63,947 bases of DNA, filler included, from Candidatus Hydrogenedentota bacterium (GCA_040752395.1; 14 parts of 14 records of this genome joined end to end with filler, not necessarily neighbours in it), one strand, 5' to 3'; counted from the whole stretch's first letter, positions 1-60,177 are shown. Made by a program: numbers and translations. The notes: generated from the sequence alone by a model not told the origin.

Positions 1-168
1 TCGACTCCCGACCCCTAATATACCCCATCCCCTATGACCCATCCCCTAATATCCTTTGTGGCTTCTCCTCCTGTCTTCTGTCTTCTGTCTCCTGACTTCT
101 AATTTTTAATTTAACTTTGTGCCTCTGTGTCTCTAACTACTTTTATTATTTTAACCACTAACCACTTA
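1..168. repeat. Modular intergenic repeat locus (GACTCCC, CCCCTAA, CTGTCTY and GTGCCTCT modules)
   Basis: Shares CGACTCCCGACCCCTAA, CCCCTAATATACCCCATCCCCTA and AATATCCTTTGTG with 33301-33372. Confidence 0.75.
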
Positions 169-169
169 C

Positions 170-1315
170 TCAACATATCTGCTCATATAATTTCTTTGTT
201 TGTGCTGCGATATAATCCCATGAGAAATATTCCTCAACTCTGGCTCTACCCTCTCTACCCATCTTTTCTGCCAGGGTTCTGTCTTTTAAAAGTCTGTTTA
301 CAGCATCTGCTATCTGTTTCGGGTTAGCTGGTTCTACTAAAATCCCGGTCTTTTGCGGGATTACCACCTCTAAAATCCCACCGACCGCAGATGCTACAAC
401 AGGCCGCGAACAAGCCATTGCTTCTAAATTTATTATTCCAAACGGTTCATAGATTGACGGACAGACAAATACCCGAGATGATGAGTAAAGCTGTACATAC
501 TCTTCTTCTTTCAAAAGTTTATGTATCCAGACTATGTTCTTTTTTGACTCGACTATTTTAGTCATCCGGTCTTCGTACTCTTTTGTATCAGCACCTACTG
601 CTCCAAAGACCATCTGAACGTTCTCATCTATCATCTCGCGTGCCTGAATTAGATATTCCATCCCTTTCTGAGGCGTTGGTCTGCCTACAAAAAGTATATA
701 ATTGTCAGAAATCCCGTACTCTTTTTTTAAACTATCTGAAAGCGGAGTGTATTTCCATTTGTTTAAATCAATACCGTTATGGATCACAGCAACTCGCTCC
801 TCTTTTACATTAAAATATTTTAATATATCTGCTTTCATCATATTAGAGACTGCTATTACTCTGTCTGCATTCTCTAACCCGGTTTTCTCAATCCAAGCAG
901 AGAGCTGATATCCTTTACCGAGCTGGTCTTCTTTCCATGGCCTTAACGGCTCAAGTGAATGTGAGGTTGCTACAAACGGGATCTGATATAATAATTTTAC
1001 AAGAAAGCCTGCTAAATGACCGTACCAGGTATGTGTATGCACAACATTAGAATCTATCTTATCATACACCATCGCTAAATTAGTGGAGATTGTATCTAAT
1101 GCAGGCGAAAAAATCGGTATCGGCTCTTTTTTTAATCTCTCCCAACCCTTGTAACCTTTAACAATTTTTGAGACCTCTTTTATATCCTGGTCACCAAAAC
1201 ATCTGACCTCGACCTCCATCAGTTTAGAAAGCGCCTCGGATAAATAACGTAAATGAACCCCGGCACCACCATACACATACGGCGGATACTCACGTGCAAT
1301 AAATGTTACTTTCAT
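170..1315 (-). CDS. glgM: GT4 glycogen synthase family protein, GlgA/GlgM type (probable maltose-1-phosphate synthase)
   Basis: Motifs REYPPYVYGGAGVH, HTHTWY, HSLEPLRPWKEDQLG and YEPFGIINLEAMAC. ATG at 1315 has an AGGAGG RBS. Adjacent to glgE. Confidence 0.85.
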   Translation of the reverse strand: MKVTFIAREYPPYVYGGAGVHLRYLSEALSKLMEVEVRCFGDQDIKEVSKIVKGYKGWERLKKEPIPIFSPALDTISTNLAMVYDKIDSNVVHTHTWYGHLAGFLVKLLYQIPFVATSHSLEPLRPWKEDQLGKGYQLSAWIEKTGLENADRVIAVSNMMKADILKYFNVKEERVAVIHNGIDLNKWKYTPLSDSLKKEYGISDNYILFVGRPTPQKGMEYLIQAREMIDENVQMVFGAVGADTKEYEDRMTKIVESKKNIVWIHKLLKEEEYVQLYSSSRVFVCPSIYEPFGIINLEAMACSRPVVASAVGGILEVVIPQKTGILVEPANPKQIADAVNRLLKDRTLAEKMGREGRARVEEYFSWDYIAAQTKKLYEQIC

Positions 1316-1326
1316 CGTTACCTCCT

Positions 1327-1400
1327 TTTCTTGCTTCTTGCTTCTTTCATTATCTTTCTTTTCCATTATCTTGCTTCTTGCTTCTTGCTTCTTGCTTCTA
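1327..1400. repeat. (CTTGCTT)n / TTATCTT module between glgE and glgM
   Basis: Heptamer array, the reverse complement of the AAGCAAG module at 3390, 20710 and 34915. Confidence 0.85.
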
Positions 1401-1406
1401 ATATAT

Positions 1407-3344: not shown

Positions 3345-3347
3345 AAT

Positions 3348-3622
3348 AATCTCCTCTGAAAAACATTGTAACTATAATAATATCAAGTAGAAGCAAGAGG
3401 CAAGAAGCAAGAAGCAAGAAAACGTCTGAATCTCCTCTGAAAAACTTCGCAACCCTAATAATTTGGGGTACAGGCTACGGACTACAGCCGGCTGGAGCCA
3501 AAAGCCAAGAGCCTGCTGAAAAGTCTTGAGTCTTGAGTCCTGTTTTGACTCACGACTTGCGACTTGTGACTCACGACTCTTTTTATATCATCTTTAGTTT
3601 TTCATCCTTTGTGTAGAGCGCA
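3348..3622. repeat. Modular repeat chain upstream of glgE, running into the contig end
   Basis: AATCTCCTCTGAAAAAC twice (3348, 3429), then (AAGCAAG)n, CAGCCGGCTG, (GTCTTGA)n/(GACTCAC)n and TATCATCTTTAGTTTTTCATCCTTTGTGTAGAGCGCA. Confidence 0.92.
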
Positions 3623-3722
3623 NNNNNNNNNNNNNNNNNNNNNNNNNNNNNNNNNNNNNNNNNNNNTTAATTAATTAANNNNNNNNNNNNNNNNNNNNNN
3701 NNNNNNNNNNNNNNNNNNNNNN
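3623..3722. other. Artificial contig linker (N44-TTAATTAATTAA-N44), the first of 13
   Basis: Identical 100-nt linkers at 3623-3722, 7342-7441, 25613-25712, 29316-29415, 32994-33093, 36668-36767, 40313-40412, 43947-44046, 47579-47678, 51205-51304, 54789-54888, 58372-58471 and 61915-62014. Genes are truncated at them. Confidence 0.98.
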
Positions 3723-3811
3723 GCTTTTGGCTTTTGGCTCCAGCCGGCTGTAGTCCGTAGTCTGTAGCCTGTAGCCCGAATTATTAGAGTTACAGCGTTT
3801 TTTTAGAGGAG
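3723..3811. repeat. Modular repeat chain in reverse orientation, ending at the lacI RBS
   Basis: Reverse complement of the chain at 39652-39740. Ends ...GTTACAGCGTTTTTTAGAGGAG-taata-ATG. Confidence 0.92.
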
Positions 3812-3816
3812 TAATA

Positions 3817-4860
3817 ATGAGGAATCTACTTAACATTTATGATATTGCAGAACGAGCTGGTGTCTCAATTTCTACTGTCTCGCGTGTAATCAATAATAAG
3901 GATTATGTAAGCAAAGAAAAACGCGCAAAAATATTGAAAATATTAACAAAACTTAATTTTAAACCAAATAGTATCGCCCGCTCACTCGTGCTTAAAAAAC
4001 ATAATACAATCGGGGTTTTTCTTCATTATTCTGGCCTTTTATATGTAGAACTTTTTGCAAGCAGGGTACTTTCTGGTATCTCTGAATACGTAAAAGCTGA
4101 TAGCAGCTATGCCAGCCAGCAAAAACAAATTATCAATCTGCTCCTCTTCTTCTTAAATGATGATGTTGTTAATGAACAGAATATTGATGAATCTTTAAGA
4201 AGCGTCGATGGGATTTTATTATTTGATATAAGATATAATTATGATTTTATTAAGAAACTAAAAAAGATAAATATCCCTTTTGTCCTTTTAAATGAAAAAA
4301 GTGTTAATAAAGACGATAGTTTTGTAAGTATAGATAATTTTTCAGGCGGTTATATTGCGGTGAAACATCTGCTTGATATGGGTCATAAAGATATCTGTCT
4401 TGTGACCGGCAATCTGAAACTTCAATCAGGAAAAGAGAGGTTTGATGGTTCAATAAAGGCACTTAGAGAAAAAGGTATAAAAATTAAAGAATCATTTATT
4501 ATTGATGCAAATTATCTACCAGAACTTGCGAGAAAGGGGATCAAGGATATTTTTAAGAAAAAAAATAGACCAACAGCCATATTTGCAGCAAGTGATTTGA
4601 TGGCAATGGCTATTATTGATGCGTTGAAAGAAATGAATATCAGTATCCCTGATGAGGTATCAATAGTCGGTTTCGATAATAGCATCATAGCTCCTGCGCT
4701 CAATCCACCGCTTACAAGTATAGACCAGCCGCTCTTTTTGATGGGATACAGATCTGTTGAAATCCTCTCTCAACTTATAAATACAGAAGAAAAGAAACAA
4801 GCCATACAACAAATCCTGCCAGTCGAATTAATCAAAAGAGGATCAGTTAAGCAATATTGA
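3817..4860 (+). CDS. LacI-family transcriptional regulator
   Basis: HTH IYDIAERAGVSISTVSRVIN, PNSIARSL hinge, and C-terminal IPDEVSIVGFD / PPLTSIDQP. Confidence 0.95.
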   Translation: MRNLLNIYDIAERAGVSISTVSRVINNKDYVSKEKRAKILKILTKLNFKPNSIARSLVLKKHNTIGVFLHYSGLLYVELFASRVLSGISEYVKADSSYASQQKQIINLLLFFLNDDVVNEQNIDESLRSVDGILLFDIRYNYDFIKKLKKINIPFVLLNEKSVNKDDSFVSIDNFSGGYIAVKHLLDMGHKDICLVTGNLKLQSGKERFDGSIKALREKGIKIKESFIIDANYLPELARKGIKDIFKKKNRPTAIFAASDLMAMAIIDALKEMNISIPDEVSIVGFDNSIIAPALNPPLTSIDQPLFLMGYRSVEILSQLINTEEKKQAIQQILPVELIKRGSVKQY

Positions 4861-4890
4861 GAAGTTTGGGATTCCTAATATCTTGTATGC

Positions 4891-6087
4891 TCAAAGCTTA
4901 TTTTTTAATTCTTTAATATCGGGTCCAATTTTAATCAGAGAATCTATATCAACTGATTTGAAGGCTGAATCGATATCCTTCAAGCCACAACCAGTTAATA
5001 AGACAATAATTTTTTTATCTTTATCAATAATGTTATCCAGGGCTTTTATACATCCAGCAAAAGAAGCAGAAGAAGCAGGTTCGGAAAATATACCACTTAA
5101 ACTTGCAAGTTCTTTCATAGCAGATAGGATCTCATTATCTGATACAGTAATAGCATCACCCTGACTACGTTTTATAGCACGTAGAGCAGCATCACCATCA
5201 CGTGGAAAATCTACTGATATAGAGTCAGCTAAAGTGTTACTTGAGGTCTTCTCAATGGGCTTATTAGACTTGTAAGCATTGAAAATAGCAGCACTTCCTT
5301 CGGCTTGTACCGCGAGAATTTTAGGCTCGTTTTTTATTAAATTAAATTCTTTAAGCTCATAAAACCCTTTCTCAACCCCACTTAAAATATTACCATCACC
5401 TACTGGTACAACTACCCAATCAGGCACCTCCCCTTTTAATTGTTCATAGATTTCAAAACTAACTGTTTTTTTACCCTCTCGCGTAAATGGATTATAGCCA
5501 GTATTTCTGTTATACCACCCAAACTCTTTACCTGCGTTTAAAGATAAATCAAAAGCATCATCATAAGTACCCTGCACAATAAAAACCCTTGAGCCATATA
5601 TTAAAAGTTGAGCTATTTTTGCTTTTGGTGCTGTATGCGGAACAAAAATAATAGGTTTTATACCGATTGATGCTGATAAACAGGATAGACTTGATGCCGC
5701 GTTACCAGTTGATGCACCACAGATTTCTTTATACCCACTTTCTCTGAAATGTGCTAAAGCTACTGCACTTGCCCTGTCTTTAAAAGAATACGAGGGGAGC
5801 CTACCCTCGTCTTTAAGGAATAATTTAGGTATTTTATATTTTTCATTTATACGTTTAGGCCGAATTAACGGGGTATTACCAATAATTAAATCAGGTAAGT
5901 TTGATGCTGTTTGTATCGGTAATAACTTTCTATAACGCGATAGCCCTTTACCAGGTTCTGGGAAAATCCCAATTTTTTCTTTATAATCAAATATAACCTC
6001 GAGGTTTCCACCGCATCTCTTGCATACGAATGATTCTTTTGGATCATTTTCAGTGTTACATCTGATACATTTTGTAATAAATTCCAT
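4891..6087 (-). CDS. thrC: Threonine synthase-like PLP enzyme (fold type II) with N-terminal Zn ribbon
   Basis: CxxC...CxxC, GNTPL, PSYSFKDR (PLP lysine), ASTGNA, EGKKT, VPVGDG and LTGCGLK. The substrate may not be phosphohomoserine. Confidence 0.7.
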   Translation of the reverse strand: MEFITKCIRCNTENDPKESFVCKRCGGNLEVIFDYKEKIGIFPEPGKGLSRYRKLLPIQTASNLPDLIIGNTPLIRPKRINEKYKIPKLFLKDEGRLPSYSFKDRASAVALAHFRESGYKEICGASTGNAASSLSCLSASIGIKPIIFVPHTAPKAKIAQLLIYGSRVFIVQGTYDDAFDLSLNAGKEFGWYNRNTGYNPFTREGKKTVSFEIYEQLKGEVPDWVVVPVGDGNILSGVEKGFYELKEFNLIKNEPKILAVQAEGSAAIFNAYKSNKPIEKTSSNTLADSISVDFPRDGDAALRAIKRSQGDAITVSDNEILSAMKELASLSGIFSEPASSASFAGCIKALDNIIDKDKKIIVLLTGCGLKDIDSAFKSVDIDSLIKIGPDIKELKNKL

Positions 6088-6100
6088 ATTATATTATTAA

Positions 6101-7288
6101 TTAAGTGATACGTTTATTATTCTTTCTTAACAAAATATCAATTACACCTACGGGGTCTTTAAACCGTGCAAGTAGAATCATAGCAGCGATAATAAAAGGT
6201 TTATAGCCTGCTTGTTTATAAGTATCGATTCTATATTTTTCAAAAACGCTTGCAGATACTTCACCCTCTTTACAGGAAACCGAAGAGATATCAGCTGGCA
6301 GGCAATGCATATATAGTGCTTTACCTTTCTTTGTCAGTTTCATCATTTTTTCATTACATTCCCATTTTTTAAATTTTGCATTATTAGCGAGACAATGTTT
6401 TTCAAGTTCTTTTAACGCTGCTTCATTTTTTTCTTTAAGTAGCGATGTCCTCTGCTGCATCACATATAACGGAGCCCAGCTTTTAGGATACACTATATCA
6501 GCATCTTTAAACGCGGTCTCCATAGAGTTAGTAATAGTAAATTTCGAGCCTGATCTTTGTGCATTAGTTTTAGCAACCTCAATGACTTCTGGTAAAAGGT
6601 CGTATCCTTTAGGATTTGCAAGCTCTACCTCCATCCCAAATCTTGTCATCAAACCAATTATACCCTGTGGTACTGAGAGTGGTTTACCGTAAGTTGGGGA
6701 ATATGCCCATGTCGTTGCGATTTTTTTACCTCTCAATTTATCGATGCCACCAAAGTATTCAATCATATATGATAGATCAGCCAGTGTTTGAGTTGGGTGG
6801 TCAATATCGCACTGGCAATTAATAACCACAGGTCTCTGATGTAGAACACCATTTTTATAACCGTCGTCAAGTGCAGAAGCTACCTCTCTCATATATTTAT
6901 TTCCTTCACCAAGATACATATCATCGCGAATACCAATAACTTCAGCTAAAAATGAGACCATATTTGCGGTCTCTCTTACTGTCTCACCGTGAGCGATTTG
7001 AGATTTACCTTCATCAAGGTCAATTACCTGTAGTCCCAGTAGATTAGAAGCGGACGCAAGCGAGAACCGAGTTCTTGTTGACTGGTCTTTGAAGATTGAG
7101 ATAGCGATCCCACTCTTGAAAACTTTAAGTGATATATTTTTCTTATGCATTCCTTTTAGAAGTTTTGCAAGTAAGAGTGTTGCTTTAATATCTGCATCGC
7201 TCCGCTCCCAGGTAAGCAGAAAATCTTTCCCGTACATACTGAATTTACACTCTTTTAACTTCGAAACGAGGCCCCTCATTTCTGACAT
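6101..7288 (-). CDS. ygeW: Knotted carbamoyltransferase YgeW
   Basis: DQSTRTRFS, SQIAHGETVRETANM, DIDHPTQ, WAYSPTYGKPLSVPQG, YPKSWAP and HCLPADI. Confidence 0.92.
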   Translation of the reverse strand: MSEMRGLVSKLKECKFSMYGKDFLLTWERSDADIKATLLLAKLLKGMHKKNISLKVFKSGIAISIFKDQSTRTRFSLASASNLLGLQVIDLDEGKSQIAHGETVRETANMVSFLAEVIGIRDDMYLGEGNKYMREVASALDDGYKNGVLHQRPVVINCQCDIDHPTQTLADLSYMIEYFGGIDKLRGKKIATTWAYSPTYGKPLSVPQGIIGLMTRFGMEVELANPKGYDLLPEVIEVAKTNAQRSGSKFTITNSMETAFKDADIVYPKSWAPLYVMQQRTSLLKEKNEAALKELEKHCLANNAKFKKWECNEKMMKLTKKGKALYMHCLPADISSVSCKEGEVSASVFEKYRIDTYKQAGYKPFIIAAMILLARFKDPVGVIDILLRKNNKRIT

Positions 7289-7297
7289 CACATATCC

Positions 7298-7341
7298 CTC
7301 CTATGACAAGTAAGAAGTGAGAAGTATCAGGACAGGCTACA
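7298..7341. repeat. Start of a repeat chain at the ygeW RBS, broken by the contig end
   Basis: CTCC-TATGACAAGTAAGAAGTGAGAAGTATCAGGACAGGCTACA. Same modules as 20755-20785 and 60055-60090. Confidence 0.85.
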
Positions 7342-7441
7342 NNNNNNNNNNNNNNNNNNNNNNNNNNNNNNNNNNNNNNNNNNNNTTAATTAATTAANNN
7401 NNNNNNNNNNNNNNNNNNNNNNNNNNNNNNNNNNNNNNNNN

Positions 7442-10432: not shown

Positions 10433-10474
10433 CTCCTATAAAGAAGCAAGAAGTGGGAAGTGAGAGGTATCAGA
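10433..10474. repeat. Short repeat chain between the wbqC-like gene and the SDR-DegT gene
   Basis: CTCC-TATAAAGAAGCAAGAAGTGGGAAGTGAGAGGTATCAG. Contains the RBS of one gene and the stop codon of the other. Confidence 0.8.
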
Positions 10475-11180
10475 AAGTTTGGACAATGTGGTTAGGTTTT
10501 GAAGTTAACACATTTAGACTTTTATCGCCACAATTAAATAATAAATCAACTATCGATAAATTGGGGATAAAATCTCCGAAAAACTGTGGGTATACAGGAG
10601 ATTTAAACTCCTGAAACTCAAGTTTTATACCATTCTCTAAAAATTTTTCTACACTATATAAGTTTTTACCCGCGGCGCCGTTATAACAATAGGAAGCACC
10701 AAGCTCTATACATACTGCCATCAGTCTCTCTTTACCCCTTACCTCTGTTTTTAATCGACTGCTATAGCTAATATCTCTTTCTAACCCTAAAAAATTCATA
10801 CATAAAAATATTAGTTCCATATCAAGGTCTATAAGATACTCGAATCTTTTATTTATTACATCAATTATGGGTTCAAAATAATCATTAAAATAAGGTGTTT
10901 TACCATAGCAGGCTTTTAATAGGTTTATATGTCTTTTTTGCCAATCTTCATTATAAGAAATCTTTATATCTTTAATCAACGTTTTTGTAGGAGCTTTTTT
11001 TACAGGGACCGTAATATACACATCTTTACCATTAGTAGATTTGATCCTGTTTCTATTTCTCCAGTCAAGTTTTGTATATTGGGCATCGTCAAAAACAACG
11101 AATATATCGGTTCTGTAGATCTGCTCAAAAAAACCAAGCCAGGGGAGATAACCTGGCTGTAACATCATCAGACGTTTCAT
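10470..11180 (-). CDS. WbqC-family protein
   Basis: QPGYLPWLGFF, DDAQY..WRNRNRI, and YPQF..FIPNLSIVDLLFN. Confidence 0.92.
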   Translation of the reverse strand: MKRLMMLQPGYLPWLGFFEQIYRTDIFVVFDDAQYTKLDWRNRNRIKSTNGKDVYITVPVKKAPTKTLIKDIKISYNEDWQKRHINLLKACYGKTPYFNDYFEPIIDVINKRFEYLIDLDMELIFLCMNFLGLERDISYSSRLKTEVRGKERLMAVCIELGASYCYNGAAGKNLYSVEKFLENGIKLEFQEFKSPVYPQFFGDFIPNLSIVDLLFNCGDKSLNVLTSKPNHIVQTF

Positions 11181-11342
11181 AGCATTTCACTTTTTATCAG
11201 GTCTTTTTTAAAAGTATCATTTTTAAGGAACTAAATTTTATAAAAATAGCTTTTTTCATTCTCGTAATTCTTTAAAAACAAGCTTATTCTAAACTCTCAC
11301 CAAATTTATCTGGCAATAGTTTCTATTTACTATAATAACAAT

Positions 11343-11448
11343 GTAATGCCTCAGTCTTCAGTGGAGTCTCTTTATCTTGCCTCTTGTATCTAATTCGTGC
11401 CGTTTCTTGCTTCTTGCTTCTTAATCCCACTTATAACAGAGGGATTAC
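11343..11448. repeat. TCAG/CTGA-bounded repeat element, subfamily 2
   Basis: GTAATGCCTCAGTCTTCAGTGG...(CTTGCTT)n...TATAACAGAGGGATTAC. Compare 21889-21967, 34190-34278 and 46833-46887. Confidence 0.7.
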
Positions 11449-11695: not shown

Positions 11696-12154
11696 CTAAA
11701 GCATTGTAGGTTCAACAATTTCAATTGAATTATAGCCGAGCAAAATATTTACCACATTTACTTCCCTTTTGGTCTTTAATTTAACAATATGTTCAAAGTT
11801 CCAACTTACCATAATATCAAGAGAATTGATTGTTGTTACCGCGAGATGAATTGCATCCTCAATGTGTTTTACTGGTATGATCCCTCTTGTTACATATTCT
11901 TGAGCTAATATCCTGATTTCTTCATCCTTAGTGGAAAGAGAATTAAAGCCTTCTATAAGATTAAGTAGATTTTCTCTTGTTACTTTATTACCTGTAGATT
12001 CTATTTCCTTTATTACTAAATCAGAAATAAATACCTCATATTCTTTCAAATTTGTCCAAAATTGCCTTGTTGTCTCTTGACGGTAAGAATTCTTTTCATC
12101 AAAATAGGCATTAGGTACTGATGTATCTAAGTATAATTTTAATTTAGATCTCAT
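11696..12154 (-). CDS. PIN-domain (VapC-like) protein
   Basis: LYLDTSV, ISDLVIKEI, EDAIHLA and VSWNFEHIV. Confidence 0.9.
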   Translation of the reverse strand: MRSKLKLYLDTSVPNAYFDEKNSYRQETTRQFWTNLKEYEVFISDLVIKEIESTGNKVTRENLLNLIEGFNSLSTKDEEIRILAQEYVTRGIIPVKHIEDAIHLAVTTINSLDIMVSWNFEHIVKLKTKREVNVVNILLGYNSIEIVEPTML

Positions 12155-12346
12155 ATTTATACTTATACTATCTTTTTTATTTAAACTCAAGTAGAATTTG
12201 ATTTTTTGTAGGGGAGGTTTTTGATACTGAGTTTATCAGTTTTTTTAAAGGTATCATTTTTAAGGAACTAAATTTTATAAAAATAGCTTTTTTAATGCCA
12301 ATAGTTCTTTAAAAAACAAGCTTAAAGTTTTCAAAAACCCCTTTTT

Positions 12347-20645: not shown

Positions 20646-20670
20646 TTCTTATTTCCTCTCTCTATCCCCA

Positions 20671-21012
20671 CTCCTCTGAAAAACATTGTAACTCTAATGA
20701 TATCAAGTAGAAGCAAGAGGCAAGAAGCAAGAAGCAAGAAGCAAGATAACGGAAGAAGTGAGAGGTGTCAGGACAGGCTACAGGCTACGGACTACAGCCG
20801 GCTGGAGACAAAAGCCAAAAGCCAGCTGAAAAGTCTTGAGTCTTGAGTCTCGAGTCCTGTTTTGACTCACGACTTGCGACTTGTGACTCACGACTCTTTT
20901 CATATCATCTTTAGTTTTTCATCCTTTGTGCCTTTGCCTGCCTGCCGCGGCGGAGCGCGGCGCAGGCAGGTGCCTCTGTACCTTTGAAAGTAAAAAGTAA
21001 GAAGTATCGAAA
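20671..21012. repeat. Long modular repeat chain containing a nested 34-bp palindrome
   Basis: Contains the CTCCTCTGAAAAAC, AAGCAAG, GTGTCAGGAC, CAGCCGGCTG, GTCTTGA/GACTCAC, TATCATCTTTAG, GTGCCTYT and AAGTATC modules. Confidence 0.93.
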
Positions 21013-21021
21013 GGACAAACT

Positions 21022-21872: not shown

Positions 21873-21985
21873 AATTTTCTGATACTTCGTATTCCCTCAG
21901 TTTTCGGTGGAGTTTCTTTATCTTGCTTCTTAAGTAAATTCTACAGCACCAATAACTGACGGATTACGATACTTCTTACTTTTGC
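21873..21985. repeat. Repeat element, subfamily 2, between divergent genes
   Basis: TTTTCTGATACTTC, GTATTCCCTCAGTTTTCGGTGG, TTATCTTGCTTCT, AATAACTGACGGATTAC and GATACTTCTTACTTTT. Confidence 0.7.
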
Positions 21986-24364: not shown

Positions 24365-24380
24365 AGTTTAACCCCTTTCA

Positions 24381-24470
24381 TCTTGCTTCTTGCTTCTTGA
24401 TATCCCCTCAGTCTACTACGGGTCTAAAGACCCTCACTACTCTGTGCCTCTTTCTTTATCTTGCTTCTTG
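24381..24470. repeat. Repeat modules overlapping a gene 3' end
   Basis: (CTTGCTT)n plus CTCAGTCTACTACGGGTC-taaa-GACCCTCACTACT. The same module occurs at 33129-33163 with a different 4-nt loop. Confidence 0.8.
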
Positions 24471-25612
24471 CTTCTTACATAATATAATGCTCTGGTAAAA
24501 AATATAAAAGAAATAATGGCATATAAAATAATTATATATTCTCCACCATAAAGCCTCGTCATAATAACATCACTACCATATATTGCTATGGCTTCTAATT
24601 GTATATAAACCTTACCAAAAATCGATTCAAGCAAAGTTAATGGTCTGTTATGATTGTATAAGGTCAAATAAAACATATTTACTATAACTACTGAGGTTCC
24701 ACAAAGTTGAATAAACACACTGAATAAAAATATTATAAAAAAAAGAATCTTATTAATCTCTTTATAAGCAAAACTATAAATTGAAATAAATAGCAGAATA
24801 AGATATGGAACCATAAGCCGCGGTCCGTACTCAAGATTAATCTCTTTGTCCCGCCAGAAACTGTATAACAAAAGATAAGAAAGAAAAATAATCCACGAAA
24901 TTAAAATATCTTTTATCTTTATGGACTCCTGCTCTTGCCGGAATAATATGACTAATTTGTAAAAAGTATAAAAAAACGTTAATATTAATAATGGGAAATA
25001 GTAAAATATGGACTTGAATGGACTTAATAAATATATCCTTAAACCCTCTAATAAGTTCGAATCCCATAAATTCTCATATCCTGTTTCAAGTATATCCCCT
25101 GTTCTTATATAATTATAATACGCTGCAATAATAAGAGCTAAAAACAACCAGGCTGAAATCATTAAAATGGATTGTTTATTTCTATAGAGTAAATAGTAAT
25201 ATACTACTAAAAGAAATATCGCAATGATTGTATCAAATCTCACTAAAAATAACAGAGATACAATAACCCCGATAATTAAACTATTATATAATTTTGCGTC
25301 TTTAAAAGTTCGCCAGAATAATAAAACAAGTAAAAACGTTGTAAGAACTGTATTGAAAAAATACTCTGCATAAACCCATACTGGAGACGCAAACCCGATT
25401 ATTATTGAACATAACGCTGATTTATATGTATCCAGTCTCGTTCGGCAAATAAGATATGCTACTACAACTGTCAAAGCAGCTGAAAGAATACTTAAAAGAG
25501 AGCAAAACCAGTGTCGCATAACCTCTTTAGCTGTCTCACCTTTGCAGAATCTTGAAAAGAAATCACCTGCATAATAAAAAGGTATGGCAATAAGTGACAT
25601 ACCTATACCAAA
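24437..25612 (-). CDS. Polytopic membrane protein, GT39/GT-C-like (5' truncated)
   Basis: YNYIRTG..ETGY, LLSPFKSIFYYFP and YGPRL. Similar in architecture to 54889-56185. Confidence 0.65.
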   Translation of the reverse strand, partial: FGIGMSLIAIPFYYAGDFFSRFCKGETAKEVMRHWFCSLLSILSAALTVVVAYLICRTRLDTYKSALCSIIIGFASPVWVYAEYFFNTVLTTFLLVLLFWRTFKDAKLYNSLIIGVIVSLLFLVRFDTIIAIFLLVVYYYLLYRNKQSILMISAWLFLALIIAAYYNYIRTGDILETGYENLWDSNLLEGLRIYLLSPFKSIFYYFPLLILTFFYTFYKLVILFRQEQESIKIKDILISWIIFLSYLLLYSFWRDKEINLEYGPRLMVPYLILLFISIYSFAYKEINKILFFIIFLFSVFIQLCGTSVVIVNMFYLTLYNHNRPLTLLESIFGKVYIQLEAIAIYGSDVIMTRLYGGEYIIILYAIISFIFFTRALYYVRSKKQDKERGTE

Positions 25613-32400: not shown

Positions 32401-32993
32401 CTTGTATTCAATTTTATCTTCAGTAGTTTCTATTATGTCAACTCTTTCGTCTCTTCCGATAATTGCAAGGTTGTCTATAACTATTTTGCCAGAGCCTACC
32501 TTTGTAAAAGCAAGGTTTAGGTTTTCAGGTATAGTTAGATCAATGTCAGCAAAAGCAGAGAGCGGTATCTTAACCATCTGCCACTCACGAGTTGTCACGA
32601 AATGGTCATTAGATAAAACCTTTTTCTCATTACCTTTTTCATCTTTGATTCCGATCTCGAATATTTCCCAACCTTCGCCGCCTCTTACCATAAATGAAAG
32701 ATACATCTGGTTTGATATATTATAGCCTTTTAGTATTGTTCCACAACCGGCGAACCCTAAACGATTGATTTTATAATTTAATTCCAGTGAATAACCGACC
32801 TCAGTATAGGCATCTTTACCACTAACATATTTAACCTCAAGAGATGAGCCTGATTTCAAGTCGGCGAAATCAAAATACCCTGTGCCGAGAGCATTTGGTG
32901 GGCCACCTTGATTGAAATTATCAATTATTAGTGGTTCGGCATGGACAGAGGCAAGAAGCAAGATAACGGAAAGAAAGATAACGAAAGAAGCAA
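29428..32993 (-). CDS. Large secreted protein with four CBM11/CIA30-like domains and a putative C-terminal beta-barrel (5' truncated)
   Basis: Repeated (I/L)DD(F/M)...LSFxxRG / I.IK.xD..G / W....IP...F / I.xDDI units. Signal cleavage VHA-EP. Aromatic alternating C-terminal ~450 aa ending FNY. Confidence 0.7.
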
Positions 32994-33093: not shown

Positions 33094-33436
33094 GTGAAAT
33101 TTGCAATTCGACATGCGCGGCGAGTCGACTCAGTCTACTACGGGTCTTGTGACCCTCACTACTTCGAAAAACTTCGCAACTCTAATAATTCGGGGTACAG
33201 ACTACGGGCTACGGACTACAGCCGGCTGGAGACAAAAGCCCGGAGCCTGCTGAAAAGTCTTAAGTCTTGAGTCTTGAGTCTCGAGTCCTGTTTTGACTCA
33301 CGACTCTCGACTCCCGACCCCTAACCCCTAACCGACGCCCCCTAATATACCCCATCCCCTAATATCCTTTGTGCCTTTGTGCCTCTTTCGTTATCTTTCT
33401 TTTCCTTTATCTTGCTTCTTGCTTCTATGATATCGC
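33094..33436. repeat. Modular repeat chain downstream of pyrH
   Basis: Hairpin GGGTC/GACCC module, GAAAAAC..AACTCTAATAATT, CAGCCGGCTG, GTCTTGA/GACTC, CCCCTAA, GTGCCT and CTTGCTT modules. Confidence 0.92.
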
Positions 33437-34174: not shown

Positions 34175-34189
34175 AATTAATAATTATTT

Positions 34190-34278
34190 GTATCTCCTCA
34201 GTCTTTTTCTGATACTTCTCACTTCTTACTTTTTTCATTATCTTGCTTCTTGCTTCTAACCTATAACTGAGTAGTTAC
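34190..34278. repeat. Repeat element, subfamily 2, between tsf and pyrH
   Basis: GTATCTCCTCAG...CTGATACTTCTCACTTCTTAC...(CTTGCTT)n...TATAACTGAGTAGTTAC. Confidence 0.78.
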
Positions 34279-34280
34279 AA

Positions 34281-34871: not shown

Positions 34872-34875
34872 AATC

Positions 34876-35172
34876 CTCCTCTGAAAAACGTTGTAACTCT
34901 AATAATATCAAATAGAAGCAAGAAGCAAGATAACGGAAAGAAAGATAACGAAAGAGGCAAGATAAACAAACATCTAGTTTTTCATACGTTGTGTAGAGCG
35001 CAAAAACGCAATAACCCAATAACCCAAGAACCCAATAACCCAATAGTGTAGAGCGCAAACCGCGCTCATGAGTACTCCTTCGAAAAAAGTTCGGAGTTCG
35101 AAGCTCGGTGCTATTATTACGAACTCCTAACTTCTAACTCCTATGAAAAGTTAAAAGTTAAAAATATCATAT
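34876..35172. repeat. Modular repeat chain between rpsB and tsf
   Basis: CTCCTCTGAAAAAC, (AAGCAAG)n, GTGTAGAGCGCAAA twice, (AATAACCC)n, and AGTTCGG/CTAACT arrays. Confidence 0.92.
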
Positions 35173-35177
35173 CATTT

Positions 35178-36068
35178 CTACTGTTTTTTAGTTTCTTTAT
35201 CATGGGCTTCTAATTCTTCTTTTTCTTTTGCTTCTATTTCAAGTTCAGCTTCAAGAAAGAGTTTCTTTTCTTCTGTAAGGTCATCGGTTAACTCGTATTT
35301 TTCTTTAAAAAACCTTTCAGTTAATTTATCAGGTTTAACCTCTTCAGCTTTTTCTTCTATTTTTTCATCTTTATGTTCAGCTTCATATTCCTGTCTGCCA
35401 GCAATAACAGCATTTGCTACCATATCGCATATCAGAGAAGTGGACCTTATCGCATCATCATTCCCCGGTATAACATAATCAACATAACTCGGGTCACAAT
35501 TAGTATCAACAAGTCCGATAACTGGTATCCCGAGTTTTTTTGCTTCTTTAACAGCTATCTGTTCTTTACTCGGATCAACTACAAATATTGCCTCTGGTAA
35601 TTTTTTCATATTATATATACCCTGAAAGAATCCCTCAAGTTTGGTTATTTCTTTATTTAAATTAGCTGCCTCTTTTTTGGGTAATATCTCTAACATTCCG
35701 GTATCTCTCATCTCTTTTAGTTCTTTCAGTCTATTTATTCTTTTATTTATAGTCTGCCAGTTTGTTAACATTCCACCAAGCCATCGGTTATTTATGTACG
35801 GCATACCGCATTTTGTAGCACCTTCACTTATTGCTTTTTGTGCCTGGTGTTTCGTACCTATAAATAATACGGTTCCAGCATTCTTGATAATACTTTTTAT
35901 AAATTGATAGGCTTCTTCTGCTAAAACTATGGTCTTTTGTAAATCAATAATATGAATACCGTTCCGTTCAGCATAAATATATTTAGACATTTTAGGGTTC
36001 CATCGTTTTGTCTGATGACCAAAATGTACGCCTGCTTCTAATAAGTCCTTCATTACAACAGCTGGCAT
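35178..36068 (-). CDS. rpsB: 30S ribosomal protein S2
   Basis: [34 protein letters not shown] and PGNDDAIRS. Confidence 0.98.
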
Positions 36069-36767: not shown

Positions 36768-36968
36768 GCTACAGGCTACAGGCTACGGACTACAGCCGGC
36801 TGGAGCCCGAAGCCCGGAGCCTGCTGAAAAGTCTTGAGTCTTGAGTCTTGAGTCTCGAGTCCTGTTTTGACTCACGACTTGCGACTCACGACTCACGACT
36901 CTTTTCATATCATCTTTAGTTTTTCATACCTTGTGTAGAGCGCAAACCGCGCTCATGACGACTCCTTC
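36768..36968. repeat. Modular repeat chain at a contig start
   Basis: GGCTACA, CAGCCGGCTG, GTCTTGA/GACTCAC, TATCATCTTTAG and a single GTGTAGAGCGCAAACCGCGCTC. Confidence 0.92.
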
Positions 36969-39643: not shown

Positions 39644-39651
39644 TAATATAT

Positions 39652-39848
39652 CTCCTCTGAAAAACGCTGTAACTCTAATAATTCGGGCTACAGGCTACGG
39701 GCTACGGACTACAGCCGGCTGGAGCCCGAAGCCCGGAGCCTGAAGCCAACATATCATCTTTAGTTTTTCATACCTTGTGTAGAGCGCAAAAACGCAATAA
39801 CCCAATAACCCGATAGTGTAGAGCCCAACCCGAGCTCATTACGACTTC
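39652..39848. repeat. Modular repeat chain lacking the GTCTTGA/GACTCAC module
   Basis: CTCCTCTGAAAAAC, CAGCCGGCTG, TATCATCTTTAG, GTGTAGAGC twice and AATAACCC. Confidence 0.9.
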
Positions 39849-40412
39849 TTTATTTTTCTCCGGTTCAACAACCGTCACTACGATTTCCTGTTTGAGGTTC
39901 CAAGATACAACCCCCTGAGGTTCAGACCATATAACCGGTCAACAACAATCTCTCTGTTTTTGGGGCAAGGTAATCTGAGATACTGGTTCTGCAGCGTTAA
40001 GCCCTGAACCAATCAACCAGTATGTCTGCTTTAAAGATGTTTTTCAATTCATCAGGAATTCTGGTCTGTCATAAATAAGCATAGAATAAATAAAATAATA
40101 GATAAGTCAAGAGAGAGTGAATTATAAATTCACTATTTTATTTGGAGAAGATATATCCATACACGCTTGTGCAACGATGTTGGGTTCACTTAACCCGTAA
40201 TGTAAAAGATAAAATTAATCGTAGTTGCGAAGGCAATACCCTCATTTAAGAATAAGGCAAGTTGTGAACGTATTCTTTTTGCTATTTTTAACTATTATAA
40301 TGTTAAATGGAANNNNNNNNNNNNNNNNNNNNNNNNNNNNNNNNNNNNNNNNNNNNTTAATTAATTAANNNNNNNNNNNNNNNNNNNNNNNNNNNNNNNN
40401 NNNNNNNNNNNN

Positions 40413-42449: not shown

Positions 42450-42450
42450 T

Positions 42451-43845: not shown

Positions 43846-44046
43846 AGATAATTAATAAACTATACTTTCGCACATTTTACCTTAAAAAAATAAAAAGCCC
43901 CCGTATAATATTGACTACAATTAAATAATCAACACTATACTGAGGANNNNNNNNNNNNNNNNNNNNNNNNNNNNNNNNNNNNNNNNNNNNTTAATTAATT
44001 AANNNNNNNNNNNNNNNNNNNNNNNNNNNNNNNNNNNNNNNNNNNN

Positions 44047-47123: not shown

Positions 47124-47208
47124 TGGAGGGAGGAGGATTCGAACCTCCGAAGACTTAAAGCCAACAGATTTACAGTCTGCCCCCTTTGGCCAGCTTGGGT
47201 ATCCCTCC
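47124..47208 (-). tRNA. tRNA-Tyr(GTA)
   Basis: GGAGGGATACCCAAG...GCAGA-CTGTAAA-TCTGT, long variable arm and GGTTCGAATCC. CCA is not encoded. Confidence 0.95.
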
Positions 47209-47515
47209 TCTGAAAAACATTCTAACTCTAATAATTCGGGCTACAGGCTACGGGCTACGAACTACAGCCGGCTGGAGCCCCCTATGAAAAGTCTTGAGTC
47301 TCGAGTCCTGTTTTGACTCACGACTCGCGACTTTTGACTCTTTTCATATCATCTTTAGTTTTTCATCCTTTGTGTAGAACGCAAAAACGCAATAACCCAA
47401 TAACACAATAACACAATAGTGTAGAGCGCAACCCGCGCTTATGTTGACTCCCTCGAAAAAGTAAGAAGTAAGAAGTATCAGAAAAAATTTTAATCTTTTA
47501 ATCTCTCAATTTTTA
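47209..47515. repeat. Modular repeat chain filling the tRNA-Thr to tRNA-Tyr spacer
   Basis: Begins TCTGAAAAAC immediately at the tRNA-Tyr 5' end. Contains CAGCCGGCTG, GTCTTGA/GACTC, TATCATCTTTAG, GTGTAGA twice and AAGTATCAG. Confidence 0.92.
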
Positions 47516-47521
47516 AACATA

Positions 47522-50779: not shown

Positions 50780-50904
50780 GTCAATGGATTTCATTTAAGC
50801 AGCCATTTTTAAGGTAAAATGTGCGAAAGTATAGTAATTCATATTAAATAATTATATAGTGCTATACTGCTACCCTGAAACGTGAGACACTTTAAAGGGG
50901 AGGA

Positions 50905-51204
50905 AAAGAGGCACAAAGGCACAAAGGATGAAAAAGATAGGAGTTAGGAGTTCGTAATAATAGATACGAGCTCCGAGCTCCGAACTCCGAACTTTTTCGA
51001 AGGAGTCAACATGAGCGCGGGTTGCGCTCTACACTATTGTGTTATTGTGTTATTGGGTTATTGCGTTTTTGCGCTCTACACAAAGGATGAAAAACTAAAG
51101 ATGATATAAAAAGAGTCGTGAGTCGTGAGTCGCAAGTCGTGAGTCAAAACAGGACTCGAGACTCAAGACTCAAGACTTTTCAGCAGGCTCCGGGCTTCGG
51201 GCTC
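50905..51204. repeat. Modular repeat chain in reverse orientation with nested direct repeats
   Basis: CACAAAGGATGAAAAA at 50920 and 51079; TGCGCTCTACAC at 51023 and 51070. Runs to the contig end. Confidence 0.92.
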
Positions 51205-53518: not shown

Positions 53519-53524
53519 CAGTTA

Positions 53525-53755
53525 CTCCTCTGAAAAACGCTGTAACTCTAATAATTCGGGGTACAGGCTACGGGCTACGGACTACAGCCGGCTGGAGGCC
53601 GGAGCCTGCTGAAAAGTCTTGAGTCTCGAGTCTTGTTTTGACTCACGACTCTTTTCATATCATCTTTAGTTTTTCATCCTTTGTGCCTCTGTGCCTTTGA
53701 AAGTAAGAAGAGTATCAGAAAAATTTTTAATCTTTCAATCTTTGAATCTTTCAAC
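53525..53755. repeat. Modular repeat chain between hflX and the carboxyltransferase gene
   Basis: CTCCTCTGAAAAAC, CAGCCGGCTG, GTCTTGA/GACTC, TATCATCTTTAG, GTGCCTYT, GTATCAG and AATCTTT arrays. Confidence 0.92.
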
Positions 53756-54788: not shown

Positions 54789-54888
54789 NNNNNNNNNNNN
54801 NNNNNNNNNNNNNNNNNNNNNNNNNNNNNNNNTTAATTAATTAANNNNNNNNNNNNNNNNNNNNNNNNNNNNNNNNNNNNNNNNNNNN

Positions 54889-57681: not shown

Positions 57682-58081
57682 TGATTTTTAATGTTTTTTC
57701 ATAAATTTGTAGTGAGGCTTTAGGATTGCTTGTTTGTAATTTAGAAAACGCTGCTTCAGTTAATTCTAAGACTTTAATCTCCTTATCCTGTTCGGTTCTG
57801 CATTTTGCTGTTCGGATTTTATCTCCTACAAGAGCTATCTCACCTATGATATCACCGGGTTTTAAAACAGCTATCACATTATAATCGCCCTCTTTTCGTT
57901 TCTTTGTAAGAACCTCTACATTCCCTTCAATGATAATAAGCATAAAATCACCTTTATCACCTTCATTAAAAATTATTCCTTTTTTTGATACCTCATTAGT
58001 AGCATTAATTATAGCTTCCACTGTTTCAAGAGACATACCTTTAAAAAATTCTAAGTGTCTTAAAGTCTCAGGTGCCACCAT
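57623..58081 (-). CDS. Cyclic nucleotide-binding domain protein
   Basis: IFNEGDKGD, G.V.V and GDIIGEIAL..RTA. Confidence 0.88.
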   Translation of the reverse strand: MVAPETLRHLEFFKGMSLETVEAIINATNEVSKKGIIFNEGDKGDFMLIIIEGNVEVLTKKRKEGDYNVIAVLKPGDIIGEIALVGDKIRTAKCRTEQDKEIKVLELTEAAFSKLQTSNPKASLQIYEKTLKIIAQRFKRMAEKQDRWNFWL

Positions 58082-58095
58082 CTAACTAAACCTCC

Positions 58096-58371
58096 TTAGC
58101 CCCATATCCTTGGCTTAAAATTAGGGCTATTCAATATCTTCATATTCTCACCTTTTGGGGCTAATACATATAAACCCTGCTCCTCTGCATATCTCCCCGC
58201 ACCTTTCTCAAATCTTATCCCGCTCGCAACTCCTATCACCTTCCTACCCCTATATTCTGGAAAAAATTCTATGAATTGACTTAGTGCCTCCTCGATTTTA
58301 TTTACTTCCCTTATTGTTAAATTACTTTTTACCTCTATCACTAAAACTATATCTTCTCCATCCCTGTTTTT
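58096..58371 (-). CDS. DUF3782-like / PD-(D/E)XK-type protein C-terminus (5' truncated)
   Basis: VIEVKS, FFPEY, and YAEEQGLYVL..N..FKPRIW. Confidence 0.65.
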   Translation of the reverse strand, partial: KNRDGEDIVLVIEVKSNLTIREVNKIEEALSQFIEFFPEYRGRKVIGVASGIRFEKGAGRYAEEQGLYVLAPKGENMKILNSPNFKPRIWG

Positions 58372-58508
58372 NNNNNNNNNNNNNNNNNNNNNNNNNNNNN
58401 NNNNNNNNNNNNNNNTTAATTAATTAANNNNNNNNNNNNNNNNNNNNNNNNNNNNNNNNNNNNNNNNNNNNCTCCTTTGAAAGAGTTAATGAGTTCAGGA
58501 GTTAGAAG

Positions 58509-59996
58509 TCAGGCCAATCGGGCTGATACACTATCGATTACGGTTTTTAAAACCTTTAGTCGGGCATATAATTTGCAATTTGATTCTACGATTGTCCAGG
58601 GTGCATAAGTGGTGCTTGTTCTAAAGAGCATTTCATCAACAGCTTCTTTATATGCATCCCATTTTTCTCTGTTTCTCCAGTCTTCATCAGTTATCTTCCA
58701 CTGTTTATGTTTTATTTTCTGTCTTTGTTTAAATCTTCGCAGCTGTTCCTCTTTATCAATCTGTATCCAGAATTTAATTAAAACAGTTCCGAAATTTGTG
58801 AGTTGTTCTTCAAATTCATTGATCTCTTTATATGCCCTTTTCCAATCATCTTCAGTACAAAATCCTTCTATACGTTCAACAAGCACCCTGCCATACCATG
58901 TTCTATCAAATATTGCGATGTGTCCAGCTTTGGGTATAGCTCTCCAGAACCTCCAGAGATAATGATGGGCTTTTTCTTCATCATTCGGTGCAGCTATCGG
59001 TATAACCTCATAGCCTCGTGGGTCCATATTTTGAGTTAATCTTCGGATATTGCCTCCTTTACCCGCAGCATCCCAGCCCTCATAAGTTATAATAACTGGT
59101 ATCCTTTTAATGTAAATCTGATGTTCAATCTCTCTGATTCTCTGTTGATACTCATCTAACTTCTTTTTATACTCTTCTTTTTCAACCCTCTTAGATAAAT
59201 CAACCCTATCAAGCATTGAAGAATCAAGCGCTTTTAGTTTGGCTATAGAGACTCTATCTTTATTCTTTTTTATCTCTGTTTCTTTAATATCATTTACTTT
59301 ATCCTGTATAGCCTCAATTACCCTTGTAAATATTTTTACTGTTGCAAATCTTCTATCCTGAGATTCAACAATTGTCCAGGGTGCATATTCTGTATCAGTT
59401 TTTTCTATCATTTCTTCAATAGCTGTAGCATAGGTATCATATTGTTTATGATGTTTCCAGTCTTCTTTTTTTATTTTCCACGATGTAGTTTTATCTTTTT
59501 CCATTTTTTTAAATCTTTTTTTCTGTTCTTTTTTGCTTATATGAAGAAAAAATTTGATTATAACATTGCCTGCATCAGCAAGTTGACGTTCAAAAGATTT
59601 AATCTCATCATACGCTTTTTTCCATTCCGCCTCTTTTACAATCCCATCGATTCTTTCAACAAGAACGCGTCTGTACCAGCTTCTATCAAATATTGCGATT
59701 CTACCTTTAGCAGGCGTCTTTAACCAGAATCTCCAGAGAAAAGGCCTTAATCTTTCTTCGTCAGTTGGAGGTAGCGTTGGATAAACATTAAAGCCTCTTG
59801 GGTCAAGCGGTAGCATAAGTTGGTTAATTAATGTCCCTTTACCTGCTGCATCCCAACCTTCAAAAACAATGATAAGAGGTATTTTTAAATCTTTTGCCTC
59901 TCTCTGTAACTCGCCGAGTTGCAATTCAAGTTTAGACATTATCTTTTTGTATTCAGGCTTTTCTAATTTTTTTGATAAATCAACTTTTTCTAACAT
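58509..59996 (-). CDS. pap: Polyphosphate:AMP phosphotransferase (two-domain PPK2)
   Basis: Two copies each of EGWDAAGKG, DPRG, FDR(S/T)WY and APWTIV. Confidence 0.92.
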   Translation of the reverse strand: MLEKVDLSKKLEKPEYKKIMSKLELQLGELQREAKDLKIPLIIVFEGWDAAGKGTLINQLMLPLDPRGFNVYPTLPPTDEERLRPFLWRFWLKTPAKGRIAIFDRSWYRRVLVERIDGIVKEAEWKKAYDEIKSFERQLADAGNVIIKFFLHISKKEQKKRFKKMEKDKTTSWKIKKEDWKHHKQYDTYATAIEEMIEKTDTEYAPWTIVESQDRRFATVKIFTRVIEAIQDKVNDIKETEIKKNKDRVSIAKLKALDSSMLDRVDLSKRVEKEEYKKKLDEYQQRIREIEHQIYIKRIPVIITYEGWDAAGKGGNIRRLTQNMDPRGYEVIPIAAPNDEEKAHHYLWRFWRAIPKAGHIAIFDRTWYGRVLVERIEGFCTEDDWKRAYKEINEFEEQLTNFGTVLIKFWIQIDKEEQLRRFKQRQKIKHKQWKITDEDWRNREKWDAYKEAVDEMLFRTSTTYAPWTIVESNCKLYARLKVLKTVIDSVSARLA

Positions 59997-60018
59997 AAAA
60001 TCTCTCTCATAAACCTTT

Positions 60019-60177
60019 CTCCTCCTTTGATTAAGAAGCAAGAAGCAAGATAACAGAAGAAGTGAGAGGTATCAGGACGGGCTACAGGCTACAGGCTCCA
60101 GCCGGCCGTAGTCCGTAGCCCGTAGTCTGTAGCCTGCTGAAAAGTCTTGAGTCCTGTTTTGACTCAGAACTCACGAC
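60019..60177. repeat. Modular repeat chain between tilS and pap, with an internally inverted module
   Basis: AAGCAAG, GTATCAGGAC, inverted GCCGGC module and GTCTTGA/GACTCA. Overlaps the tilS stop. Confidence 0.9.

Follow-up and report, generated by a model that had tools for sequence, protein, structure and literature searches.

The intergenic regions of the DNA analyzed here carry chains of short sequence modules, and we conclude that these chains are probably copies of one lineage-specific mosaic repeat. Judged from its sequence, this repeat would be non-coding and non-autonomous, about 120–380 bp long, and similar in kind to bacterial interspersed mosaic elements (BIMEs) and BOX elements. 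The chains differ from BIMEs and their repetitive extragenic palindromes (REPs), from BOX and from heptameric simple sequence repeats (SSRs) in that they combine hairpins with linkers, contain at least 12 ordered modules, have a polarity and abut the tetranucleotide GGAG. The stretch in question (the window) is 63,947 bases long and consists of 14 short contigs of a metagenome-assembled genome (MAG) joined by N44-TTAATTAATTAA-N44 spacers. An earlier reading of this DNA (the original prediction) had described the loci as different paths through a small set of modules, assembled by recombination.

Shared modules recur in the intergenic regions of the window

The census of loci combined a regular-expression map, printed sequences and self-BLAST. 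About 21 intergenic loci carry modules (Table 1), which agrees with the predicted figure of more than 20 only if small B, C and K fragments are included; 13 have two or more module types. Repeats identified by self-BLAST account for 3206 of the 8696 non-coding bases of the window. The core modules are clearly shared, as had been proposed, with six to nine copies of each and none expected from 100 shuffles: the A 27-mer has 6 matches in the window, the F 29-mer 7 (with up to 3 mismatches), the E core 23-mer 8 and the D core 19-mer 9. These counts bear on the possibility that simple-sequence repeats grew independently in each spacer, with no copying between loci. Unit numbers do vary as slippage predicts, and heptameric SSRs are over-represented in some bacteria, according to the available text of PMC4692102. 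However, the non-repetitive linkers A, C and F, 19–31 nt long, are identical or nearly so at 6–9 unrelated loci and cannot arise independently, which makes local growth extremely unlikely.

The modules fall into several structural types. D, E and I are hairpins of inverted heptamer arrays, H is a GC-rich palindrome with a GTAG tag, B, G, J and L are direct arrays of 7- or 8-nt units, and A, C, F and K are unique linkers. The B arrays have the form (AAGCAAG)n. A strict tandem-array detector found 24 arrays of period 7 in the window, none of period 6 and 4 of period 8; the Tandem Repeats Finder list contains many more tandem arrays than this detector. The predicted heptamer character of the system is thus correct in that period 7 dominates, but the units of G, J and the additional module L (TTTYAATC) are 8 nt long. 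Two further modules are an M hairpin (CTCAGTCTACTACGGGTCT..GACCC) and a CCCCTAA array, and the composite order comprises at least 12 modules. In the CCCCTAA-type array (12–64 and 33310–33365), GGGG runs are spaced 3–8 nt apart in the gene sense and, from their sequence, could form a G-quadruplex. A 33-nt, very GC-rich palindrome (GCCTGCC..GGCAGG) lies at 20937–20969 inside J of the chain at 20671, and is the sole copy in the window.

The D, E, I and H hairpins are more stable than 200 shuffled sequences (z −2.8 to −7.0). Within the stems, six bases of each 7-nt unit are paired and one is unpaired, the loops measure 4–13 nt, and the unit numbers of the heptamer arrays differ among copies. Folding and copy comparison together therefore establish D, E and I as imperfect hairpins of inverted heptamer arrays with variable unit number, as the original prediction had it. 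The H palindrome is GTAGAGCGCAAACCGCGCTC, with a 6-bp stem (z −3.4), and GTAGAGCGC from this module matches 7 times in 63 kb. H does contain the GTAG tag, but the G of the tag is the first base of the stem; every D unit has GTAG as well (GTAGCCN), read on the opposite strand. Modules D and H are both GC-rich despite a genome of ~33% GC, and hairpin D lies ~30 nt from the A end.

The chains are colinear variants of a single module order

Thirteen chains, one of them from another assembly, can be aligned colinearly, and they differ by blocks that are present or absent. The single order is A-(B-[A|C])-D-E-F-(H-G-H)-I-(F 3' part)-J-K-L, and each complete chain is a distinct presence/absence variant of it. 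Departures from it are the second A copy at 3351, the B or K-C-B clusters that run in reverse at 1316, 24375, 33389 and 34204, and a D core that is inverted at 60096. Individual examples given previously were recovered at 20671 (A-B-C-D-E-F-J-K), 53525 (A-D-E-F-J-K, to which L can be added) and 60036 (B-C-D-E). At 47205, 34876 and 39652 the module content was correct (with L added at 47205), but G sits inside H (H-G-H) and not before it. What does not survive is the idea of a free combinatorial system, because the chains follow one order with one polarity.

Three optional blocks are bracketed by direct repeats. These are 13 nt long around G (GTGTAGAGCGCAA) and 16 nt long around H-G-H-I at 50899 (TTTTTCATCCTTTGTG), and block B at 3351 lies between two A copies, which constitute direct repeats of ~30 nt. 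Such repeats are what deletion or duplication within one composite element leaves behind. Array slippage, together with deletion and duplication between direct repeats, is enough to produce the apparent paths.

We also considered site-specific recombination, in which the modules would serve as empty cassettes or attachment sites and a tyrosine recombinase would rearrange them. The modules are discrete and their junction points recurrent, and hairpin-forming sites with unpaired bases recall the attC sites of integrons. Yet order and polarity are fixed, and permutation is confined to the duplicated A, the reversed B/K/C clusters and the one inverted D core. The optional blocks are flanked by direct repeats, and the A-D-F-H variant has been copied whole (see below). 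In addition, the 49 ORFs (open reading frames) of the window that were searched with Pfam include no integrase, and the loci are scattered among housekeeping genes and do not form one platform array. Small cargo genes had been suggested between the inverted arms at other loci; within the window, no ORF lies between hairpin arms. We regard the cassette model as very unlikely.

The A end faces the downstream gene and adjoins GGAG

Chain orientation follows the neighboring genes. The A end adjoins the start of the downstream gene in all eight A-ended chains, and also in a copy on a 2.2-kb contig from another MAG (L006, described below), wherever the neighbor gene is known. The A-less chains at 7292, 10437, 32943 and 60020 have the same polarity. 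The two chains of contig 2 are opposed, one pointing at the LacI-family gene (+ strand) and the other at the carbamoyltransferase gene (− strand); polarity therefore tracks the gene and not the replication strand.

The junction at the A end is constant. CTCC, which is GGAG in the gene sense, precedes all eight standard A copies and the copy in L006, and the sequence beyond CTCC is unrelated from one copy to the next; the variant A at 33166 is preceded by CTAC. For six of the seven protein genes, GGAG is located 5–9 nt from the ATG. At tRNA-Tyr, CTCC corresponds to GGAG at the 5' end of the tRNA itself, where it is base-paired with CUCC at the 3' end, and so GGAG is native there and was not brought in by the repeat. 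This junction pattern points to either insertion beside GGAG or microhomology joining. The distal ends vary, reaching the upstream stop codon, the tRNA-Thr 3' end or the last tilS codons. The A end (TCTGAAAAAC..) and the distal ends (K/L, F or H) have only a direct TCWGAAAAA in common.

Chains are additions to compact spacers, and one variant recurs in another assembly

The rpsB-tsf, tsf-pyrH and tRNA-Thr/tRNA-Tyr spacers all contain chains, as originally claimed. We carried out the comparison of orthologous spacers that the original prediction had suggested, using metagenomic relatives whose spacer lengths are approximate because their gene starts had to be extrapolated from the alignments. 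In the window the rpsB-tsf spacer measures 306 nt, compared to 36 nt (median) and at most 208 nt in 67 relatives, and the tsf-pyrH spacer is 106 nt, compared to a median of 8 nt in 65 relatives. Modules were found in none of 80 related loci, which were metagenome loci retrieved by a Tsf search. The chains are thus additions to otherwise compact spacers. Within the window, 11 internal spacers between co-directional genes are 90 nt or longer; 10 of them hold some repeat, and six of these 10 hold chains proper (20646, 34175, 34872, 47209, 53519 and 60042).

A 21-mer of F was compared with public genome contigs. Among the 10 matches listed, nine were chance matches in clostridial genomes and one was a true element, contig L006 of the public MAG G001. 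This contig reads H-F-D-A, then GGAG, then ATG. Its A-D-F-H variant shares 135 of 137 bases with the chain at 39652, but the gene downstream is unrelated, indicating that composites are copied as units. The remainder of G001 contains no further A, B, D or E module, and a D 25-mer was absent from all 24 other genomes of the same phylum. We asked whether G001 could be the organism of the window and ruled this out: the window's RpsB has no match in G001, and only a few genes match at the DNA level, with 66–73% identity. L006, which is contig 128 of G001, may therefore be mis-binned. Viral contigs gave no matches to the D and E patterns, and plasmids gave no match.

These comparisons also address the concern that a few real repeat loci collapsed in the de Bruijn graph and yielded chimeric walks. 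The window derives from a short-read MAG with contigs of ~3.5 kb, and a tangled graph would look like paths through shared modules. The original estimate of about eight contig ends in chains was accurate, in that seven fall within self-BLAST repeat intervals and an eighth contig starts 35 nt from one. Against this, traversed chains join genes in canonical synteny (rpsB-tsf-pyrH, as in 65–67 relatives, and tRNA Thr-Tyr-Gly), and a contig from a different assembly reproduces A-D-F-H at 135/137 bases. Moreover, copies are separated by point changes and unit numbers and not merely by joins. We consider an assembly artefact quite unlikely.

A proposed route of spread and a possible host function

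According to the reading we favor, an enzyme supplied in trans, perhaps a single-strand HUH/Y1 transposase that inserts beside a fixed tetranucleotide, would copy the composite as a whole into intercistronic spacers. Enzymes of the HUH or REP-associated tyrosine transposase (RAYT) type may be responsible: the H palindrome is GC-rich with a GTAG tag, and the A end has CTCC as its constant neighbor. The copies would then diversify through array slippage and through deletion or duplication between short direct repeats. Inserted copies would presumably be co-transcribed with the flanking genes. Their hairpins probably serve as attenuators or 3'-end stabilizers; E and I have an A run on one side and a U run on the other, as bidirectional intrinsic terminators do, and U runs follow them in the gene sense.

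Several points weigh against this reading. The evidence comes from 63 kb of a fragmented short-read MAG and the single 2.2-kb contig L006, and mobility is deduced from sequence. Pfam searches of 49 window ORFs revealed no intact transposase or integrase, no transposase of any HUH type and no Y1_Tnp match, which agrees with the earlier suggestion of a mobilizing enzyme that is not encoded beside the chains. The sole transposase trace is a 27-residue IS256/Mutator remnant at 40142–40249 on the + strand (motif QRCWVHLTRN), which matches PF00872 with an E value of 6.7e-4 and 19.1 bits versus a cutoff of 21. This remnant is near a contig end, ~300 nt from the chain at 39652, and possible further pieces lie at 39990–40070 on the − strand. 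An HUH model would expect a conserved distal end, and none was found among the chains. Inspection of the printed sequences showed no terminal inverted repeats (TIRs) at chain ends, and there are no duplicated bases, and hence no target-site duplications (TSDs), in the flanks of the chains at 20671, 47205 and 53525. GGAG at a working Shine-Dalgarno (SD) distance is as compatible with selection for function as with target choice. At the RNA level, scans of the chains for sigma-70-like promoters and clear terminators gave counts at chance level. The gene-sense strand folds more stably in 10 of 12 whole chains, but G+U richness alone can explain this bias, and D and E hairpins taken singly are not consistently more stable on either strand. 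Folding asymmetry between strands is therefore uninformative about an RNA role, and we rejected it as a test.

The same data can be read in terms of host function. The chains could be intercistronic cassettes that provide an attenuator or terminator, stems for RNA processing or stabilization and a leader with the ribosome-binding site, and that are homogenized by gene conversion and not spread by transposition. Their fixed polarity toward the downstream gene fits this model, as does the spacing of GGAG from the ATG in protein genes. The A and U runs around E and I resemble bidirectional intrinsic terminators, and chains occur within essential operons (rpsB-tsf-pyrH and the tRNA cluster) without evident harm. 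There is also a precedent in Beggiatoaceae, where heptamer repeats that lie just upstream of start codons have been suggested as sites to which a post-transcriptional regulator binds, in the part of PMC4679880 that was available. However, relatives run the same operon with spacers of a few to ~200 nt that hold no modules, and the module set differs in every complete chain, so no module is indispensable. An identical leader precedes a tRNA, where an SD sequence has no role, and one chain overruns the 3' end of tilS. Finally, promoter and terminator signals are at chance level, and no Rfam family matches the chains, the only hit being a chance-level match to a streptococcal sRNA (E 0.91). Taken together, a host-functional cassette is a secondary possibility that we think unlikely.

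A more far-reaching version of the mobile-repeat reading holds that the chains are a non-autonomous HUH-type element that targets GGAG, becomes the leader of the downstream gene and grows by nested copies. GGAG targeting would place the element exactly before ribosome-binding sites and tRNA-Tyr. In this version, heptamer-array hairpins with one unpaired base per unit would be a general, undescribed architecture present, with unrelated units, in at least three distant uncultured lineages (those of the window, of G001 and of metagenome contig L028, described below). We think this version unlikely and put it forward as speculation.

Comparison with known repeats

BIMEs are mosaics of GTAG-tagged REPs and have been proposed to be non-autonomous elements mobilized by RAYTs (PMC2817692; PMC3733652). 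As far as the accessible portions of these sources describe them, the BIMEs and REPs of Proteobacteria resemble the chains as mosaics of short motifs that are intergenic and lie mostly between co-directional genes. Both also feature a GC-rich GTAG palindrome (H in the chains), lack TIRs and TSDs, occur in high copy and break assemblies (PMC2817692; PMC3733652, in the same portions). REPs are imperfect, GC-rich palindromes of 20–40 nt in high copy, a description that H matches when copies are counted in 63 kb. In contrast to the single 20–40 nt palindromes of BIMEs and REPs, the chains consist mostly of inverted heptamer arrays in which each unit leaves one base unpaired. They also differ in having at least 12 modules in fixed order and polarity, in adjoining the ribosome-binding site and in residing in a low-GC, Firmicutes-like host.

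BOX-type repeats occur in streptococci and have up to seven modules; those of S. suis are composed of seven sub-sequences "in particular permutations" (PMC3049150). In the sections of that paper available to us, BOX resembles the chains as a composite of named modules, some of them variable and tandem, that is tens to hundreds of base pairs long and has much predicted RNA structure. BOX is co-transcribed with its neighbors (PMC3049150, same sections), and co-transcription of the chains would be a likeness by inference. Unlike the chains, BOX has TIRs and TSDs (PMC3049150), a comparison made by description and not by sequence. The fixed SD abutment of the chains likewise sets them apart, as none is reported for BOX in those sections (PMC3049150). 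The colinear alignment does show the BOX-like pattern of fixed end modules with variable internal tandem modules, represented by the B, G, J and L arrays and the optional blocks.

Elements of the IS200/IS605 type have no TIR and no TSD, carry hairpins near an end and insert 3' of a fixed tetra- or pentanucleotide. The chains resemble elements derived from them, for they lack TIRs and TSDs, have hairpins near one end and show a constant CTCC on one flank only. This fixed tetranucleotide is present at the eight standard A copies and in L006. What PMC2817692 says of hairpin recognition, in its available part, bears on this comparison. The chains differ from IS200/IS605-derived elements in their variable distal end and far greater modularity.

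Heptamer tandem repeats of cyanobacteria are known as STRR. The heptamers of cyanobacteria and Beggiatoaceae (GGGNATC and TAACTGA) are, like the chains, made of 7-nt units, intergenic and variable in unit number (PMC4679880; PMC4692102, to the extent of the text at hand). They too are preferentially found between aligned ORFs or just before start codons, in forward orientation (PMC4679880; PMC4692102, likewise). Those heptamers form single direct arrays, whereas the chains comprise inverted pairs and unique linkers, are dispersed and have unrelated unit sequences. No TAACTGA-type arrays were seen in the chains, whose units differ in sequence; only single TAACTGA words occur near the reversed B arrays.

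Inverted heptamer arrays are not confined to the window. G001 is one of 25 genomes in a small phylum in which RpsB shares 46–56% identity with that of the window, and it has 90 period-7 arrays in 163 kb, compared to five of period 6. Its commonest array, an inverted (GAAATTA)n..(CCAATTT)n hairpin, is the core of miniature inverted-repeat transposable elements (MITEs). These MITEs have TIRs (GGGACGGTTCA..TGAACCGTCCC) and TSDs of 7–9 bp and are very abundant (L102–L121, L014 and L016); one copy sits nested within the loop of a second heptamer hairpin and is accompanied by a 9-nt duplication. In at least one lineage, then, heptamer-array hairpins are part of classical transposable elements. The chains share with the G001 MITEs an inverted heptamer-array hairpin core and a high copy number, and the MITEs are nested. 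They differ from these MITEs in having no TIRs or TSDs, and the unit sequences are unrelated and the phylum is different. In L028, a contig whose Tsf is 54% identical to that of the window, nested inverted heptamer and octamer arrays lie directly before start codons (Table 1). The arrays of G001 and L028 show that inverted heptamer-array hairpins are a recurrent architecture with lineage-specific sequences.

The original prediction had also excluded a classical MITE and a CRISPR, and we agree on both. The units are 7–8 nt and contiguous, there are no TIRs or TSDs, and neither Rfam nor any CRISPR-like match was obtained.

Module loci and other features of the window

Table 1. Loci that carry modules or heptamer arrays. 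From the row at 3345 on, the strand given is that of the downstream gene. Coordinates refer to the window, except in the last row (contig L028).
Coordinates	Strand	Modules and context
1–169	−	Contig-end fragment: E right arm, CCCCTAA-type array, heptamers CTGTCTT/TAACCAC, J-like unit; 3' of GT4 gene stop
1316–1406	+	B arrays (AAGCAAG)n, reversed relative to main chains; end 4 nt before GGAGG of GT4 gene
3345–3622	−	A-B-A-D-E-F-H, cut by contig end; A adjoins GGAG 6 nt before ATG of GlgE-like gene
3723–3816	+	(contig end)-D-A, facing LacI-family gene on + strand
7292–7341	−	C-D chain start upstream of carbamoyltransferase gene, cut by contig end; polarity opposite to 3723, same contig
10437–10477	−	Mini-chain B-C-K-like, from WbqC stop to SD of epimerase-aminotransferase gene
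11349–11426	.	M-like piece and reversed B array
20646–21021	−	Fullest chain, A-B-C-D-E-F-J-K, from stop of 269-residue ORF to PFK
21874–21931	.	K, M-like and reversed B pieces; divergent intergenic region
24375–24477	.	Reversed B arrays around M hairpin and J-like unit
32943–32993	−	B module upstream of gene for 1177-residue CBM11 protein, cut by contig end
33094–33436	−	M-A(variant)-D-E-(CCCCTAA array)-J-reversed B, ends at pyrH stop
34175–34280	+	Reversed K-C-B cluster, tsf/pyrH spacer
34872–35177	−	A-B-(F 3' part)-H-G-H-I, rpsB/tsf spacer
36768–36968	−	(contig end)-D-E-F-H, H without G
39646–39839	−	A-D-F-H-G-H, without E, upstream of 84-residue ORF; first H copy half
47205–47520	−	A-D-E-F-H-G-H-K-L, fills entire tRNA-Thr/tRNA-Tyr spacer; CTCC of A = GGAG, tRNA-Tyr bases 1–4
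50860–51204	+	J-(F 3' part)-I-H-G-H-F-E-D, cut by contig end, downstream of GDSL gene, pointing right
53519–53755	−	A-D-E-F-J-K-L, fills spacer from hflX stop to SD of oadA-like gene
58472–58508	.	Contig-end fragment with J/K-like and GAGTTAA-type heptamers
60020–60177	−	B-C-D(core inverted)-E; distal end provides last codons and stop of tilS
4190–4320, 5200–5305, 6588–6613		L028 arrays; operon downstream of rpsB-tsf-pyrH, third lineage

The window has a GC content of 27–38%, in a genome of ~33% GC. Its gene content is ordinary, with housekeeping and polysaccharide genes (rpsB, tsf, pyrH, pfk, ppk2, tilS, hflX, purH and an oadA-like gene), along with many genes for glycosyltransferases and radical-SAM enzymes. 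There are genes for tRNA-Gly, tRNA-Tyr and tRNA-Met, and one for tRNA-Thr that is truncated by a contig end. The closest matches to RpsB in a search of 5.8 billion proteins have 62–67% identity, with none above 67%, and the best Tsf match, from JGI metagenomes, has 62%. Because these values are so low, the host lineage appears to be poorly sampled and without close relatives in the databases searched. The named best RpsB matches are mostly Clostridia-like, suggesting a low-GC, Firmicutes-like lineage. RpsB itself (35178–36068) has 296 residues with a C-terminal extension, and most homologues cover ~76% of its length; the two top-scoring homologues are likewise long, at 338 and 346 residues.

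Some repeats of the window stand apart from the chains. The gene for the 1177-residue CBM11 protein has an internal 241-nt repeat (31452–31692 and 31953–32193; 73% identical), which is a protein-domain duplication with no relation to the chains. An 84-nt direct repeat, 90% identical (11204–11286 and 12241–12324), flanks ~1 kb in a polysaccharide gene cluster. The enclosed stretch contains a weak PIN-domain ORF (11696–12190) and resembles either a toxin-antitoxin-like module that was inserted or a spacer that was duplicated. Finally, the exact 30-nt inverted repeat ACTATACTTTCGCACATTTTACCTTAAAAA is found outside the main chains at 43859–43888 and 50806–50835, near the 3' ends of genes on two contigs.

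Implications

In practical terms, the chains break up short-read assemblies of such organisms. If the mosaic-repeat reading is true, they would be, to our knowledge, among the most module-rich mosaic intergenic repeats known. Their placement, facing the next gene and touching its ribosome-binding site, amounts to a natural experiment on how essential operons tolerate or exploit repeats. The occurrence of heptamer-array hairpins in three unrelated lineages, once in bona fide MITEs, suggests a common way of building stable imperfect palindromes.

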